DNA of 25,482 nucleotides from Hyphomicrobiales bacterium (GTDB lineage Bacteria; Pseudomonadota; Alphaproteobacteria; Rhizobiales; S144-23), in the NCBI GenBank assembly GCA_015494375.1, contig WGBL01000213.1:1-25482 (forward strand), given 5' to 3'. The translations under genes and the position numbers were made by a program. A model generated the notes under the pieces. The model worked only from the letters and a program-made list of their open reading frames with translations. It made no database searches and was not told the DNA's origin. Below are positions 19,585 through 25,482 of the stretch, one piece after another. The stretch's first letter is position 1. Every line of letters begins with the position of its first letter.

Positions 19585-22500
19585 TCAATTCTCCTGCACG
19601 GCGAGCACGCCGTCCACCTCGGCCAGGGCGGCGGCGCGCTGGGGGGAGATGTCGCGCCTCTCGCCGAGCGCGAGGCTGACCTCGCGACCGAGGTCGGGAA
19701 GCCGTACGAGTAGCCGCACCTCGCCCGCGCCCCTTGCCGAGAGCAGCCCCGCCAGCTCATCGAGCGCCGTCGCACCATTGAGCACCACCGTCAGCCGCTC
19801 CTGCACCCGCCCCGCCGCCTCGTCGAGCGACTGCACCCGGTTCACCCTGAGCCGCATGCCCTCGCCATCGTGCTCACGCTCGGCTTCGAGCCGCACAATG
19901 ACGGTGCGCCCCGTCTCGAGCAACCCATCGGCATCTGCCAGCACATCGGAGAAGACGGCCGCCTCGAATTGTCCGCTGGTGTCGGAGAAGACGACAAAGG
20001 CAAAGCGATGCCCGCTCTTGGCGCGGCGTTCGCGACGGCTGACGACAACGCCCGCCAATGTGCCGTGGGCCTCGCCCCGCTCGATCCGCTCCGCAAATGC
20101 GCTCCAGGTCTCAACACCGAGCCTGTCCAGCACCCCCCGATAGTGATCGAGCGGATGGGCGCTCAGGTAAAAGCCCACCGCCTCGAACTCGCGCGCCAGC
20201 CGCTCGGCGGGCCGCCACGGCCTGGTGTGCACAAGCTCGATCGGGGCGGCGGCCACCTCGGCAGGACCATCGGCGAAAAGATCGTTCTGGCCCGAGGCGC
20301 GGTCGCTCGCCATGCGGTGGGCGGCGGCGAGAATGCGCTCGGTGCTCGCATGCAGGGCGCCGCGCTCGGCGCCCAGGCAATCGAGCGCGCCCGATGCTAT
20401 GAGCCGCTCGAGCGCCCGCTTGTTGATCGCTTGCGGCGCGAGCCGACGTGCAAAATCGCCGAGATCGCGATAGGTCCCGGCGCGCTCCCGCTCCGTGACG
20501 ATGGCCTCGGCGGTGCTCTCGCCAACGTTCTTGAGAGCCGCCAGACTGTAACGGATGGCATCCCCTTCCGGCACAAAGTCGTGAGACGAGTGGTTGATGC
20601 ATGGCGGCCGGATCTCGAGCCCCATGGCGCGCGCCTCATCGACAAAGACGGCAAGCTTGTCGGTGTTGCCAAGATCGAGCGTCATCGAGGCGGCCAGGAA
20701 GGCGACCGGATGGTTGGCCTTGAGATAGGCGGTCTGATAGGCGAGCAGCGCATAGGCCGCCGCGTGCGACTTGTTGAAGCCGTAGCCGGCAAACTTGTCG
20801 ACGAGCTCGAATATGTAATTGGCCTGCGCCTCATCCACGCCGTTGGCCACAGCCCCTTCGACAAAGCGCGAGCGCTGTTTGGCCATCTCGGCCTTGATCT
20901 TCTTGCCCATGGCCCGGCGCAACAGGTCGGCCTCGCCCAATGAGTAGCCCGAGAGCACCTGGGCGATCTGCATCACCTGCTCCTGATAGATGATGACGCC
21001 ATAGGTCTCCTCGAGGATGGGCGCCAGCATCTCGTGGGGGTAGCTCACGGGCTCGCGGCCATGCTTGCGGTTGATATAGGTGGGGATGTTGTCCATCGGC
21101 CCCGGCCGATAGAGCGAGACCATGGCGATGATGTCTTCGAAGCGGTCGGGCTTGAGCTGCTTGAGCGCCTCGCGCATGCCCGCCGACTCGAGCTGGAACA
21201 CGCCAATGGTCCGCCCCTCCGACAAGAGCTCGTAGGTCTTGGGATCATCGAGGCCCAAGCGGGCGAAATCGGGCGCCTCGCCCTCGCCCGATTTGCGGAT
21301 GAGCTCGAGCGTCTTGGCGATCACCGTGAGCGTCTTGAGGCCCAGAAAGTCGAACTTCACGAGCCCCGCCGCCTCCACCCACTTCATGTTGAACTGGGTG
21401 GCCGGGATGGCCGAGCGCGGGTCGCGATAGAGCGGCACCAGCTCGGTCAACGGGCGATCGCCGATGACCACACCTGCGGCATGGGTCGAGGCGTGGCGAT
21501 AGAGCCCTTCGAGCTTCTGGCCGATGTCGAGGAGCTTGGCCACCCGGGGGTCCTCGTCGCGCGCCTCGGCGAGCCGCGGCTCGTCGGCTATGGCTTCTGC
21601 GAGGCTTATGGGGTTGGCCGGGTTGTTGGGCACCATCTTAGAGAGCCGGTCGACCTGGCCATAGGGCATCTGCAACACCCGTCCCACGTCACGCAACACC
21701 ATGCGCGCTTGGAGCTTGCCGAAGGTGATGATCTGCGCCACCCGCTCGGCGCCGTATTTCTCCTGAACATAGCGGATGACCTCGTCGCGCCGTTCCTGGC
21801 AAAAGTCGATGTCGAAGTCGGGCATCGAGACCCGCTCAGGGTTGAGAAAGCGCTCAAAAAGGAGCCCGAACCGCAGGGGATCGAGGTCGGTGATGGTGAG
21901 CGCCCAGGCCACGACCGAGCCCGCACCCGAGCCGCGCCCCGGCCCCACGGGAATGCCTTGCGCCTTGGCCCACTTGATAAAGTCGGCAACGATCAGGAAA
22001 TAGCCCGGGTATTGCATATCGCGGATGACGCCGAGCTCGAAGGCGAGCCGCTCGTAATATGCGTCTTCCGTCGTGCCTGGCGCGGGGCCCGACCGTTTGA
22101 GCCGCGCCGCAAGCCCCGCCCGGGCCTGGCGCTCGAGCTCTTTTGCTTCGAGCGCCGTTTGCGCATCGTCCTTGCGGGCCGCGCCGCTGCTTACGAACGG
22201 CGGCAGGATGGGCGCCCGGCTCACTGGGCGGAAGGCCGAGCGCTGTGCCACCTCGATGGTGTTCTCGATTGCCTCTGGCAGATCGTTAAAGAGCGCGGCC
22301 ATCTCGTCCTGGCTCTTGAAATAATGCTCCGGTGTGAGGCGCCGGCGGTCGCGCTCGCTGATATAGCGCCCCTCGGCAATGCAGATGAGGGCGTCGTGGG
22401 CCTCATAGTCGTCGCGGCTTGGAAAATAGGGCTCGTTGGTGGCAACGAGCGGCAGCCCGTGCTCATAGGCGAGCGCGACCAGCCCGGGCTCAATGCGGCG

Positions 22501-23295
22501 CTCGCTCTCGAGCCCGTGGCGCTGCAGCTCGACATAGAGCCGGTCGCCGAAGATGTCGCGGAGCACAAGCAGGCGCTCTTCGGCGAGCGCACCCTGCCCG
22601 TCAGAGAGCGCGCGGTCGATGGGCCCCTCGGGGCCGCCCGTGAGTGCAATCAGCCCCTCGGCATGCGCGGCCAGAAGGGCGAGGGTGACATGGGGCTCGT
22701 GCGTCTCGGCATGGTCGAGATAGGCGCGACTCGCAAGCGCCATGAGGTTGCGATAGCCGGTCTCGTCTTTTGCGAGGAGTGCGATCTCGCCATCGCTTGC
22801 TTGTTTGCGCTCGTCAGAAGCCTCGCCGGGCGCCGTGCCATTCTCGCCATTCCTGCCGCAAGGTGAGGCTGCCGGGCCCCTTCCGTCGGCTCTGGCCGGG
22901 CTTGCGAACGAAAGCGCAAGCGTCGAGCCAATGATCGGCTGAATGCCGGCGGCCGCCACTTTCTCAGAGAACTCGAGGGCACCGAAGAGATTGTTGCTGT
23001 CGGTGATGGCCAGCGCCACGGCGCCATCGGCCTTGGTCAGCTCAACGAGGCGATCGATGGGCAGCGCGCCTTCGAGCAGCGAATAGGCCGTGTGGGTGCG
23101 CAGATGGACGAAGAGGGGCCGCCTGGCGGCCTCTGCTCGTGCGCGGGCCGAGGCCTTGGCCGCTTTCTTCGCGGACCGTGGCCTGGTGGCCGAGGTTGGT
23201 GCGGGGGCTCCTTTACCACTTGGGCCTCTTCTTCGCCGTCCGCTTCGCCCCCCGCTTCGCTCCGCGGTCTGTCGTACCTTCGTTGCCTTTGCCAT
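19585..23295 (-). CDS. dnaE: DNA polymerase III subunit alpha
   Basis: 1236 aa. PHP (HLRTHTAYSLLEG, ITDSNNLFG), GPGRGSGAGS, FERFLNPERVSMPDFDID, KFDFLGLKTLT, GVFQLES, LYRPGP, FAGYGFNKSH, OB fold. No intein or frameshift. ATG 23295 has GGAAGG 5 nt upstream. Confidence 0.98.
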   Translation of the reverse strand: MAKATKVRQTAERSGGRSGRRRRGPSGKGAPAPTSATRPRSAKKAAKASARARAEAARRPLFVHLRTHTAYSLLEGALPIDRLVELTKADGAVALAITDSNNLFGALEFSEKVAAAGIQPIIGSTLALSFASPARADGRGPAASPCGRNGENGTAPGEASDERKQASDGEIALLAKDETGYRNLMALASRAYLDHAETHEPHVTLALLAAHAEGLIALTGGPEGPIDRALSDGQGALAEERLLVLRDIFGDRLYVELQRHGLESERRIEPGLVALAYEHGLPLVATNEPYFPSRDDYEAHDALICIAEGRYISERDRRRLTPEHYFKSQDEMAALFNDLPEAIENTIEVAQRSAFRPVSRAPILPPFVSSGAARKDDAQTALEAKELERQARAGLAARLKRSGPAPGTTEDAYYERLAFELGVIRDMQYPGYFLIVADFIKWAKAQGIPVGPGRGSGAGSVVAWALTITDLDPLRFGLLFERFLNPERVSMPDFDIDFCQERRDEVIRYVQEKYGAERVAQIITFGKLQARMVLRDVGRVLQMPYGQVDRLSKMVPNNPANPISLAEAIADEPRLAEARDEDPRVAKLLDIGQKLEGLYRHASTHAAGVVIGDRPLTELVPLYRDPRSAIPATQFNMKWVEAAGLVKFDFLGLKTLTVIAKTLELIRKSGEGEAPDFARLGLDDPKTYELLSEGRTIGVFQLESAGMREALKQLKPDRFEDIIAMVSLYRPGPMDNIPTYINRKHGREPVSYPHEMLAPILEETYGVIIYQEQVMQIAQVLSGYSLGEADLLRRAMGKKIKAEMAKQRSRFVEGAVANGVDEAQANYIFELVDKFAGYGFNKSHAAAYALLAYQTAYLKANHPVAFLAASMTLDLGNTDKLAVFVDEARAMGLEIRPPCINHSSHDFVPEGDAIRYSLAALKNVGESTAEAIVTERERAGTYRDLGDFARRLAPQAINKRALERLIASGALDCLGAERGALHASTERILAAAHRMASDRASGQNDLFADGPAEVAAAPIELVHTRPWRPAERLAREFEAVGFYLSAHPLDHYRGVLDRLGVETWSAFAERIERGEAHGTLAGVVVSRRERRAKSGHRFAFVVFSDTSGQFEAAVFSDVLADADGLLETGRTVIVRLEAEREHDGEGMRLRVNRVQSLDEAAGRVQERLTVVLNGATALDELAGLLSARGAGEVRLLVRLPDLGREVSLALGERRDISPQRAAALAEVDGVLAVQEN

Positions 23296-23403
23296 TCACG
23301 CCTTCCCGGATCGGCTTGCACACGATCGCAACGCGCGTGGTCTCGTGCCCCCGCGAGTGCTCTGCTCCCCGTGCCCTGCACAGCGCACTGGTCGTGCGAG
23401 GCG

Positions 23404-23471
23404 CCCGACTGAGCCCGACTCACGGGCCCGACCAAGGCCCGACTCGCCGCCGACTCACAAATCCCGACTCA
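23404..23471 (-). promoter_or_regulatory. Tandem CCGAC(T/C) repeat array containing four GANTC (CcrM) sites upstream of dnaE
   Basis: Six units spaced 10-13 bp. GACTC at 23417, 23441, 23452 and 23466, reading TGAGTCG, CGAGTCG, TGAGTCG and TGAGTCG on the dnaE coding strand. Confidence 0.7.
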
Positions 23472-23576
23472 CTAATACTGAATAATGCCCGCCCCACGCC
23501 CCACTGCAACCGGCCGAGGGGCGGGCGGTGGACGAGCCGCGCAGCGAGGCGCGAGGCGCCTCAGTGGCAAGGCGCC

Positions 23577-24275
23577 TCAGTCGATGGGATGTAGAACACC
23601 CCCCTCGAGCTTGAGCACGCGATCCATGCGCTCGGCCAGCGCCATGTTGTGGGTGGCGACGAGGGCCGCAACGCCGGCGCCCCGCACCAGCGCGATGAGC
23701 TCATCAAAGACGCGATCGGCCGTCTCGGGGTCGAGATTGCCCGTAGGCTCATCGGCGAGCAGCAGCGTGTCGCCATTGCCCGCGCGCTCGCCAATGAGCC
23801 ACGGGTGCTGCTCGCCGCCCGAAAGCTCGCCGGGACGATGCCCGTGCCGGCCATCGAGCCCCAGGCGCCCAAGCAGCTCCGCCGCCCGCACCTCGGCCTC
23901 GCGCCGCCCGCGGCCCATGATGCGTTGCGGCAGCACGACATTCTCGAGGGCCGAGAACTCGGGCAAGAGGTGATGGAACTGATAGACATAGCCGATCTCA
24001 CGGCGGCGAATGCGGGTCCGCTCGCTGTCGGCAAGGCGCGTGCAGTCGCGACCGTCAAGGATCACCTGGCCCGCATCGGGGCGCTCGAGGAGCCCCGCCA
24101 TGTGGAGAAGCGAAGACTTGCCCGCGCCCGAGGGCCCGACAAGCCCCACGATCTCGCCACCATGGAGGGCGGCCGAGGCGCCTCTCAAAACATGGATCTC
24201 GCGCGGACCCTGGCGATAGGTGCGCACGAGCCCCTCGAGGCGGAGGGTCGCCTGCTCGGTATTTGTCCTTTGCAT
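23577..24275 (-). CDS. lolD: Lipoprotein-releasing ABC transporter ATP-binding protein LolD, carrying an internal 41-bp inversion
   Basis: 232 aa. Walker A GPSGAGKS, Q-loop YQFHHLLPEF, signature LSGGEQ, Walker B/D-loop LLADEPTGNLD, H-loop VATH. The 15 residues between signature and Walker B are non-canonical in this orientation. Directly follows lolC/E. Confidence 0.93.
   Translation of the reverse strand: MQRTNTEQATLRLEGLVRTYRQGPREIHVLRGASAALHGGEIVGLVGPSGAGKSSLLHMAGLLERPDAGQVILDGRDCTRLADSERTRIRRREIGYVYQFHHLLPEFSALENVVLPQRIMGRGRREAEVRAAELLGRLGLDGRHGHRPGELSGGEQHPWLIGERAGNGDTLLLADEPTGNLDPETADRVFDELIALVRGAGVAALVATHNMALAERMDRVLKLEGGVLHPID
23753..23817. other. Intragenic inversion: 41-bp segment (23765-23805) flanked by perfect 12-bp inverted repeats
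   Basis: CGGCGAGCAGCA (23753-23764) and TGCTGCTCGCCG (23806-23817) are exact reverse complements. The + strand reads [21 protein letters not shown], the canonical ABC-ATPase sequence, inside a minus-strand gene. Confidence 0.95.
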
Positions 24276-24282
24276 GGCGCCC

Positions 24283-25482
24283 CTACTCGTACCTCAGCGC
24301 TTCGACCGGGTCCAATCGAGAGGCGCGCCAGGAGGGATAGAGCGTCGCCAGCACCGAAATCACCACCCCCATCGCCACAATCAGTGCGGTCTGTGTCACA
24401 TCCATGCGCGCCGGCAGGCTCGCCAGATAATAGAACTCGGGATCGAACAGCTTGGTGCCGGTGAGCCGGGAGATGAACTGGCGCACGCTCTCGATGTTCT
24501 CGCAAACGATGACACCGAGCAGCAGCCCGGCCAGCGTACCAACAATCCCGATGCTCGCCCCGGTGATCAGGAAGACGCGCATGACCGCGCCCTTGGTCGC
24601 ACCCATCGTACGCAGAATGGCAATGTCGCGCCCCTTGTCTTTGACGAGCATGATGAGGCCCGAGATGATGTTGAGCGCCGCCACGAGCACGATGAGGCTC
24701 AGGATCAGGAACATGACATTGCGCTCGACCTCAAGCACGGTGAAGAAGCTGGCATTGCGCTCGGTCCAGTCGGTGACGAAATGGCGCGGTGCACCGGCAA
24801 TCGTCAGCCGCTCCTTGATTTCGGCGATGTTCTCGGGATCGTCCACCATCACCTCGAGCACGGTCACCGCGTCGCGACTGTTGAAAAAGCGCTGCGCCTC
24901 GGCGAGCGGCATGAAGATGATGCTGCGGTCGTATTCCGACATCCCGATCTTGAAGATGGCGGTGATGGGATAGCGCTTGATGTTGGGCTTGGTGCCAAAG
25001 ACGGTCGCCCGGCCACGCGGATTGACGAGCGTGACCGTATCACCGACGCGGACCTGAAGCTGGCTTGCCATCCGGCTGCCGATGGCGATTGCGGCACGGC
25101 CATCGAACCCCTCGAGCGAGCCGTCGACGATATTGCCACCGACAAGGGGCATGCGTGCGATGTCGGCGCCGCGCATGCCGCGCACAAGCGCGCCCACGCT
25201 CGTGGCCGGCCCCGCGACCATCACCTGACCCTCGACGAGGGGCATGACACTCACCACGCCCTCGACGCGCGCAAGCTTCTGCGCCACCTCGTCAAAGCCG
25301 GTGAACGGCTCGCCGACCCTATGGACGACGGCATGGCCATTGACGCCCAGGATCTTCTCGAAGAGCTCGGCGCGAAAGCCGTTCATCACCGCCATGACAA
25401 TAATGAGCGTGGCAATGCCCAGCATGATGCCGAGAAAGGAAAAACCGGCGATCACCGAAATGAACCCCTCGCGCCGGCGCGA
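24283..25482 (-). CDS. lolE: Lipoprotein-releasing ABC transporter permease LolC/E (5' end outside window)
   Basis: Frame is open to the window edge (SRRREGFISVIAGFSFLGIMLGIATLIIVMAVMNGF). Also FKIGMSEYD, ERNVMFLIL, AALNIISGLIMLVKDKGRDIAILRTMGA, ATLYPSWRASRLDPVEALRYE. Confidence 0.95.
   Translation of the reverse strand, partial: SRRREGFISVIAGFSFLGIMLGIATLIIVMAVMNGFRAELFEKILGVNGHAVVHRVGEPFTGFDEVAQKLARVEGVVSVMPLVEGQVMVAGPATSVGALVRGMRGADIARMPLVGGNIVDGSLEGFDGRAAIAIGSRMASQLQVRVGDTVTLVNPRGRATVFGTKPNIKRYPITAIFKIGMSEYDRSIIFMPLAEAQRFFNSRDAVTVLEVMVDDPENIAEIKERLTIAGAPRHFVTDWTERNASFFTVLEVERNVMFLILSLIVLVAALNIISGLIMLVKDKGRDIAILRTMGATKGAVMRVFLITGASIGIVGTLAGLLLGVIVCENIESVRQFISRLTGTKLFDPEFYYLASLPARMDVTQTALIVAMGVVISVLATLYPSWRASRLDPVEALRYE

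Follow-up and report, generated by a model that had tools for sequence, protein, structure and literature searches.

The lolD-dnaE spacer and its repeat array

The DNA analysed here (the window) is a stretch of 25,482 nt that corresponds to contig C213 of a metagenome-assembled genome of 2.81 Mb in 465 contigs, with 64% G+C and a completeness of 88.6%. The source genome was found in three hydrothermal-vent metagenome runs, all of one study, and its owner is an uncultured, deep-branching lineage of the Hyphomicrobiales. The named relatives identified by DnaE are Hyphomicrobiales with 50-61% identity, belonging to Xanthobacteraceae, Methyloceanibacter, Hyphomicrobiaceae, Aestuariivirgaceae, and Parvibaculaceae. 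The genome search yielded kin at the level of the order at best, and among the metagenome contigs searched for closer relatives the best DnaE identity was 64%.

The structural genes lolC/E (24283-25482), lolD (23577-24275), and dnaE (19585-23295) are all encoded on the minus strand, lolD being the same-strand gene upstream of dnaE, and this lolD-dnaE synteny is seen in about half of the order-level relatives. The dnaE gene codes for the replicative DNA polymerase III alpha subunit of 1236 amino acids and matches model NF004226 with 1482.8 bits (cut-off 1002). Its start codon, the ATG at 23295, is the sole in-frame ATG, GTG, or TTG upstream of the conserved FVHL block, is immediately preceded by an in-frame TGA, and was called identically in a second assembly. 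The N-terminus of DnaE (23122-23295, minus strand) is a basic extension of 58 amino acids rich in Arg, Lys, and Ala, which is absent from most relatives. By our own count its first 30 or so codons have a third-position G+C of about 47%, compared with 82% gene-wide; the extension also contains a strong AAGGAG that is not followed by a start codon, and in a co-occurring strain it carries a 12-bp in-frame deletion at 23239. As a separate observation, opposite-strand joints around a 41-bp segment of lolD (23752-23817) are present in contigs of all three runs.

Within the lolD-dnaE spacer, positions 23404-23472 are occupied by an array of six direct units of about 11 bp. On the plus strand their CCGAC sequences start at 23406, 23415, 23428, 23439, 23450, and 23464, with a spacing of 9-14 nt, and on the minus strand the units read, in this order, GTGAGTCGGG, GTGAGTCGGC, GCGAGTCGGG, CTTGGTCGGG, GTGAGTCGGG, and CTCAGTCGGG, separated by spacers of 1-5 nt. 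Four of the six units contain GACTC, and thus a GANTC site, at 23466-23470, 23452-23456, 23441-23445, and 23417-23421, respectively for units 6, 5, 4, and 2. Numbered so that the dnaE-proximal unit is unit 1, and all taken on the minus strand, unit 6 (23463-23472) has an intact TGAGTCG box, lies nearest to a -10-like patch and, according to the alignment described below, takes the place equivalent to that of the single conserved box of relatives. Unit 5 (23449-23458) also has an intact TGAGTCG box and is part of a 14-nt tandem pair (D2), unit 4 (23438-23447) has an intact CGAGTCG box, and unit 2 (23414-23423) has again an intact TGAGTCG box in a 10-mer identical to unit 6 (D5). Unit 3 (23427-23436) and, in the reference, unit 1 (23404-23413) are degenerate and devoid of GANTC. 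The dnaE strand therefore shows TGAGTCG three times and CGAGTCG once, all four boxes fit YGAKTCG/YGAKTCK in dnaE orientation, and they lie 122-175 nt 5' of the A of the ATG at 23295. The core common to all six units is GTCGG, not GANTC. The initial annotation had described six CCGAC(T/C) units, four of them with GACTC reading YGAGTCG on the dnaE strand at 122-175 bp from the ATG, and every detail of this description holds, as does its statement that the array adjoins an AT-rich patch (CACTAATACTGAATAAT, 23470-23486). The remaining dnaE leader (23296-23403, minus strand) carries the Shine-Dalgarno sequence GGAAGG at 23306-23301. No Rfam match at E ≤ 1 was obtained for 23150-23650, and the 189-nt dnaE leader has no excess structure (folding z of +1.55 relative to shuffles).

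Candidate promoter and terminator elements upstream of the array

The AT-rich patch in front of unit 6 (23473-23487, minus strand) includes two putative -10 hexamers, CATTAT (23487-23482) and CAGTAT (23480-23475), and upstream of it (23498-23509, minus strand) two putative -35 hexamers are present, TTGCAG (23509-23504) and TGGGGC (23503-23498). They may be paired as TTGCAG-16-CATTAT and TGGGGC-17-CAGTAT, directly before unit 6. These candidate hexamers match 3-4 of the 6 consensus positions for sigma-70, which is below the threshold of the strict scan, and the strict sigma-70 consensus scan of 23200-23700 gave no promoter. With either pair, the boxes would be located at about +1/+8, +15/+22, +26/+33, and +50/+57 relative to the predicted start, and two or three of them would fall inside +1 to +33, as judged from two sub-threshold hexamer pairs. 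Readings of the AT-rich patch as a CtrA box (TTAA-N7-TTAA) or as an alphaproteobacterial LexA box (GAAC-N7-GAAC) were dropped, as by eye neither fits ATTATTCAGTATTA.

The AT-rich patch is at the same time the U-rich tail of a GC-rich hairpin located after lolD (23487-23526, minus strand; I2), which consists of nine perfect pairs plus more, is followed by AUUAUUCAGUAUU, and folds with -31.5 kcal/mol (z -2.0). As the tail contains 4 U in 8, it fails the rule of the strict terminator scan (23200-23700), and the hairpin is possibly a weak lolCDE terminator that overlaps the -35 and spacer candidates. The patch and the hairpin might accordingly be a lolCDE terminator only, in which case the array would lie in non-functional spacer and dnaE would be transcribed from a promoter elsewhere or by read-through from lolD. 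The folding energy of the hairpin, the tail that follows it, and the lack of a strict promoter match in the spacer agree with this, whereas the U-tract is weak and is left uncalled by the strict scan. Furthermore, the patch is the only AT-rich segment resembling a -10 element from the hairpin to the dnaE ATG, and therefore, if the hairpin terminates, the dnaE promoter must overlap the AT-rich patch; a terminator hairpin is compatible with a promoter at this place. Relatives that do not have lolD upstream of dnaE also retain a promoter-like block with its box (see below). Altogether, we consider it quite improbable that there is a terminator only.

CcrM, GcrA, and the distribution of GANTC in the genome

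Both genes named in the initial annotation, ccrM and gcrA, are present in the genome. The CcrM orthologue is encoded by an ORF of 396 amino acids on contig C81, which is the sole N6_N4_Mtase match of the genome and aligns at 553.8 bits with CcrM from Caulobacter (PDB 6PBD); the alignment spans residues 14-363 of a chain of 366 residues and takes in the C-terminal domain. The GcrA orthologue is encoded by an ORF of 176 amino acids on contig C404 that matches PF07750 with 168.8 bits and the structures PDB 7YE1, 5YIU, and 5YIX, both the DNA-binding and the sigma-interacting domains being covered. Residues W3, W15, R33, N34, I37, and G38 are identical, and R33, N34, I37, and G38 are the residues that form the methyl pockets of GcrA (PMC5887438). 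Acting on sigma-70 RNA polymerase, GcrA activates mainly promoters with methylated YGAKTCK/YGAKTCG sites (PMC4647560; PMC9976885), and the proposal that the sites upstream of dnaE are CcrM-type GANTC sites within the extended GcrA motif agrees with these published consensus sequences. The centre of a GcrA box lies close to -20 or -30 or between +2 and +30 (PMC4647560; PMC9976885). GcrA is monomeric, acts 1:1 with RNA polymerase, and uses one box at most promoters (PMC9976885); PmipZ has two boxes, at +4 and +12 (PMC4647560; PMC9976885). The direct regulon of GcrA in Caulobacter includes a single gene of the replisome, namely dnaE (PMC4647560). Two cross-checks of the regulon were uninformative, as no true MipZ was found in the genome via PF09140 and no GANTC is present between ftsA and the directly following ftsZ.

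The GANTC sequence is depleted in the window (40 observed versus 105 ± 10 in shuffles) and in the whole genome, where 3457 sites were counted and about 9270 are expected from composition (observed/expected 0.37). Its density is 1.58 per kb outside and 1.05 per kb inside called genes, the about 1750 genes having been called with a crude GC3-based caller. Depletion together with a higher density outside genes is the pattern of CcrM-bearing Alphaproteobacteria (PMC3973325). A density of at least four GANTC per 60 bp is reached at no more than five loci in the 2.81 Mb. The genome has 962 YGAKTCG sites, and if these were independent, about 0.002 same-strand four-site clusters within 56 bp would be expected by our own arithmetic, an expectation that is inapplicable to the dnaE cluster because its sites are copies of a tandem repeat. 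Among the called genes, dnaE alone has four forward YGAKTCG boxes in the 250 nt before it, and no other gene has more than two. Short arrays are frequent (TRF reports 49 in the 25-kb window and 3126 in the genome), and the 340 short-period arrays of the genome that have 3.5 copies or more include 4 with GANTC in the unit. This is the frequency expected by chance, and therefore the dnaE cluster by itself is not beyond chance. The case for more than chance rests on which unit was copied, on its place and orientation, and on the comparative context.

Other clusters of GANTC were noted in the genome. The densest one, with 10 sites, is located between mnmE and mnmG on contig C215 (about 1290-1525, locus L114) and contains a perfect parS-type palindrome, TGTTTCACGTGAAACA, with GACTC-N4-GATTC before it and seven GGATTCC-type sites after it, so that an array of methylation sites adjoins a centromere-like site. 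The same layout of two GANTC, palindrome, and GGATTCC array is found upstream of mnmG at loci L209 (13 GANTC) and L210 (7 GANTC), which belong to other families of the same order. On contig C306 (2136-2195, locus L116), five GANTC occur within about 140 bp in a long stretch that lacks ORFs of 110 amino acids or more and precedes the dnaA ORF by about 900 nt; the cluster might represent a dnaA promoter under the control of methylation or a region close to the origin. The remaining two of the five loci with at least four GANTC per 60 bp are on contig C25 (1674-1713), next to ORFs that have no Pfam match, and on contig C258 (11479-11523). The latter is a tandem repeat of TTCAGAGTC with 3.6 copies and lies within or next to ORFs that likewise have no Pfam match, with a peptidase M1 gene nearby.

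The common GTCGG core raises the question of whether the array might be an operator for another protein that binds the direct repeat GTCGG(G), such as a response regulator, the GANTC sites being incidental. None of the six units lacks the core, not even the two that have no GANTC, and with 9-14 nt the units are spaced at close to one turn of DNA. On the other hand, clusters of GTCGG, GTCGGG, or AGTCGG are otherwise absent from the genome, the dnaE array being unique, and hence there is no signature of a regulon; moreover, the block found in relatives is single-copy and centred on GAGTCG. To our knowledge, no regulator with a GTCGG(G)-repeat site has been described, which also counts against such an operator, and we judge it very improbable. 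The ideas of a dispersed repeat and of a second regulon were ruled out by the same lack of other GTCGG-type arrays.

A single GAGTCG box is conserved in dnaE leaders of relatives

In the 350 nt before the conserved DnaE N-terminus, at least one GANTC was found at 71 of 78 named Hyphomicrobiales dnaE loci, and YGAKTCK was found in forward orientation at 31 and in reverse orientation at 14 of them; as these loci are kin, the counts overstate their independence. Sites at orthologous dnaE promoters, a point raised in the initial annotation, are thus present, and most clearly so in 23 dnaE leaders from Bradyrhizobium, Tardiphaga, and Xanthobacteraceae, in which GAGTCG, mostly as GCGAGTCGGC, is single and invariant (alignment A2), these 23 loci being one related clade and the relatives compared with the window being distant at the level of family or more. 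The box belongs to a block with the invariant or near-invariant order TGGACn, a gap-free but unconserved spacer of 17 nt, CAC(C/G)AT, about 8 nt, and GAGTCG, located 70-110 nt before the start codon of MPSAGFVH. The block is non-coding, as many loci have the dnaE frame closed upstream of it, and the box occurs in all three frames. A reading of TGGACn...CAC(C/G)AT as a hairpin was dropped when RNAalifold gave no conserved pairs for the 23-locus alignment. Two conserved hexamers with a fixed spacing and a free spacer are the signature of a putative promoter, and relative to it the centre of the GAGTCG box would be at about +5. About half of the 23 loci have a further GANTC, placed within the -35-like hexamer. 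We know of no published description of a conserved single GAGTCG box at these dnaE leaders.

The units of the window share the GAGTCGG core with the box of the 23 loci, unit 4 differing from GCGAGTCGGC at the last base only. MAFFT pairs CAGTAT of the window with CACCAT and GTGGGGC with GTGGACT, in a weak alignment with a mean column identity of 47%, and because of this weakness the positional equivalence of the window promoter and the Bradyrhizobium-type promoters is inferred. In 30 order-level relatives, the region upstream of dnaE lacks an array and contains between 0 and 4 GANTC in scattered positions; a GANTC cluster is likewise absent from the relatives that, within the order, are nearest by DnaE. 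Origin of the element by tandem duplication of one box, as had been proposed, is in line with the repeat analysis and with the single equivalent box in other Hyphomicrobiales. In the nearest LolD relative (L120, a JGI contig; 74%), TGAGTCGATTC is located downstream of lolD, 13 nt before a perfect TATAAT (1215-1260); it contains two overlapping GANTC, of which one is in a consensus box, and corresponds to the -30 class of positions. This contig ends before any recognisable dnaE.

Different elements were observed in other groups. In a Methyloceanibacter-type clade (L129-L150, L180), a conserved element GGGGATATGTC ... CCCTTC ... GGCCGAATCCG.GAGGGTGA is present 60-140 nt before the DnaE N-terminus; its GAATC is invariant with flanks outside the GcrA consensus, and pairing of CCCTTC with GAGGG is possible. 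In seven order-level relatives (L010, L020, L022, L026, L027, L028, and L030), a hexamer similar to TTGACA is found 150-350 nt upstream of dnaE. It overlaps a LexA-box-type motif GAAC-N7-GAAC, which is absent from the window, and in these seven a small hydrophobic ORF follows the motif between the upstream gene and dnaE.

Strain variation and the extra copies

Strains were compared by using the Logan contigs of three runs that cover the array, which amount to few unitigs from one study. Single-base variants of co-occurring strains affect several units: 23446 G>A converts the CGAGTCG of unit 4 into TGAGTCG, 23442 A>C destroys the GANTC of unit 4, and 23411 G>C, a low-quality call, together with 23412 A>C provides unit 1 with a fifth GANTC that has a poor 5' flank (GGAGTCG). 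A further variant, 23473 T>C, is located just past the -10-like hexamer. At thin coverage, the contigs of the three runs showed neither a change in unit number nor an indel in the array. Two related contigs found via the LolD 90% cluster, L117 (a Logan contig) and L118 (an NCBI MAG contig), have the same number of array units and encode LolD variants that form separate members of this cluster; the spacer of L118 is identical to that of the window, and L118 may derive from the same samples.

The array, with 5 variants in 69 bp, is no less variable than the remaining spacer, with 12 in 212 bp. In the nine-base core, there are 5 differences in 54 positions, from which by our own arithmetic neutral decay predicts about 3 of 6 seven-base boxes to be intact. 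As 4 are seen, the number of intact boxes fits neutral decay, and therefore there is no sign of selection on the extra boxes.

These data bear on the possibility that the array is a neutral product of slippage, in which a GANTC segment was copied by chance, no unit or only the original one is regulatory, and dnaE expression is independent of the array. Such an origin agrees with the chance rate of GANTC-bearing arrays, with the variant density and the number of intact boxes, and with other tandem indels that distinguish strains nearby, namely a 14-bp tandem duplication behind 23310 and the deletion at 23239 mentioned above. Against it stand the facts that the copied unit is the GAGTCGG core, which is invariant at dnaE leaders of another family, that the units are in dnaE orientation directly after the only AT-rich -10-like patch, that the Caulobacter dnaE orthologue is a GcrA target, and that the array is unique in the genome. 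We regard a purely neutral array as rather unlikely.

Discussion

On balance, the array is probably part of a dnaE promoter that is read by GcrA and CcrM and whose single box was multiplied by tandem duplication or slippage. Two other GANTC clusters of the genome, one upstream of dnaA and one beside a parS-type site, are also counted in favour of this reading. The lolD-dnaE spacer would then be the dnaE promoter and early leader within a CcrM/GcrA-type cell-cycle circuit. In such a circuit, CcrM would methylate the adenines of the four GANTC sites, GcrA on sigma-70 RNA polymerase would read a methylated YGAGTCG box just downstream of the start site, and dnaE transcription would rise in S phase, as at 'downstream box' promoters of Caulobacter such as PmipZ. 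One box in the ancestral position may have given rise to the six units by local tandem duplications of a unit of about 10-14 nt with the core GAGTCGG, the multiplication running downstream into the leader, and two units may since have lost the GA of GANTC. We infer the methylation of the sites, the start site, the dependence on GcrA, and the effect of extra boxes.

The extra boxes are probably of small or neutral effect and at most raise the odds that polymerase-bound GcrA finds a box. It is unlikely that the multiplied boxes are functional, as a landing strip for GcrA-loaded RNA polymerase or for several GcrA molecules, with gain and loss of GANTC acting as gain control. If they were, the three, four, or five GANTC sites of different strains would represent an evolvable S-phase dosage of the replicative polymerase, and such a box-dosage mechanism would be new for GcrA, which is thought to work with one box per promoter. 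The initial annotation had gone further in this direction. Its functional multi-site cassette fits poorly with a monomeric GcrA that acts 1:1 and mostly at one box (PMC9976885) and with an intact-box count expected from neutral decay. Its suggestion that copy number tunes expression finds no counterpart in the contigs, in which unit number does not vary and single-base variants make and break GANTC. Sensing of fork passage by the array is not supported either, as the discrimination by GcrA of hemi- from fully methylated DNA was left open (PMC4647560).

The closest parallels are the PmipZ-type promoters of Caulobacter crescentus, with which the window shares the extended motif, TGAGTCG being the better PmipZ box (PMC4647560; PMC9976885). 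As at the downstream-box promoters of Caulobacter, the boxes follow just after a -10-like element, predicted in the present case, and CcrM and a GcrA with the methyl-reading residues are encoded; dnaE itself is in the GcrA regulon of Caulobacter. In contrast to Caulobacter, where there is mostly one box and PmipZ has two, the window has four intact and two decayed boxes in a tandem array that is predicted to reach to about +50/+57. Promoters with several GANTC are known from Agrobacterium tumefaciens, where Pddl has five and the repE promoter PE-Ch2 has three (PMC13687562). These are likewise from the Hyphomicrobiales, have several GANTC per promoter region, and are linked to replication or division. 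Methylation-dependent binding of GcrA, reported for Pddl and PE-Ch2 (PMC13687562), would be a further likeness. They differ in that a single motif (M3) appears to matter in Pddl and in that the Agrobacterium sites, which do not all have consensus flanks, are not repeats of a single unit in tandem (PMC13687562). The Bradyrhizobium-type dnaE leaders have in common with the window the GAGTCGG core, its orientation, its place after a CAnnAT hexamer, and its non-coding upstream position, whereas their box is present in single copy, often with a second GANTC in the -35-like hexamer, and the window has six units. The dnaA and ctrA P1 promoters of Caulobacter, which are discussed in PMC4647560, are regulated by methylation state. 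They resemble the present case as promoters of replication or cell-cycle genes with GANTC, and this genome has a cluster of five sites upstream of dnaA; they differ in that the models proposed for them depend on a fully methylated promoter becoming hemi-methylated when the fork passes, and of such a switch the window gives no evidence.

Read in this way, the array elaborates locally on a cell-cycle control system that has been described before, and both the target gene, from Caulobacter, and promoters with several GANTC were already known. The main new result is the comparative sequence evidence from Hyphomicrobiales dnaE leaders, which points to a conserved promoter box. The practical value of the finding is modest; it offers a testable prediction for alphaproteobacterial cell-cycle transcription and no new type of system. 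The vent lineage would provide a natural series from zero to six boxes, with which one could examine whether the number of boxes matters for a monomeric regulator. If the proposed reading is true, methylation-read control of dnaE by GcrA, so far demonstrated in Caulobacter only, would extend to the Hyphomicrobiales, covering both a deep-branching lineage from hydrothermal vents and the Bradyrhizobium group.
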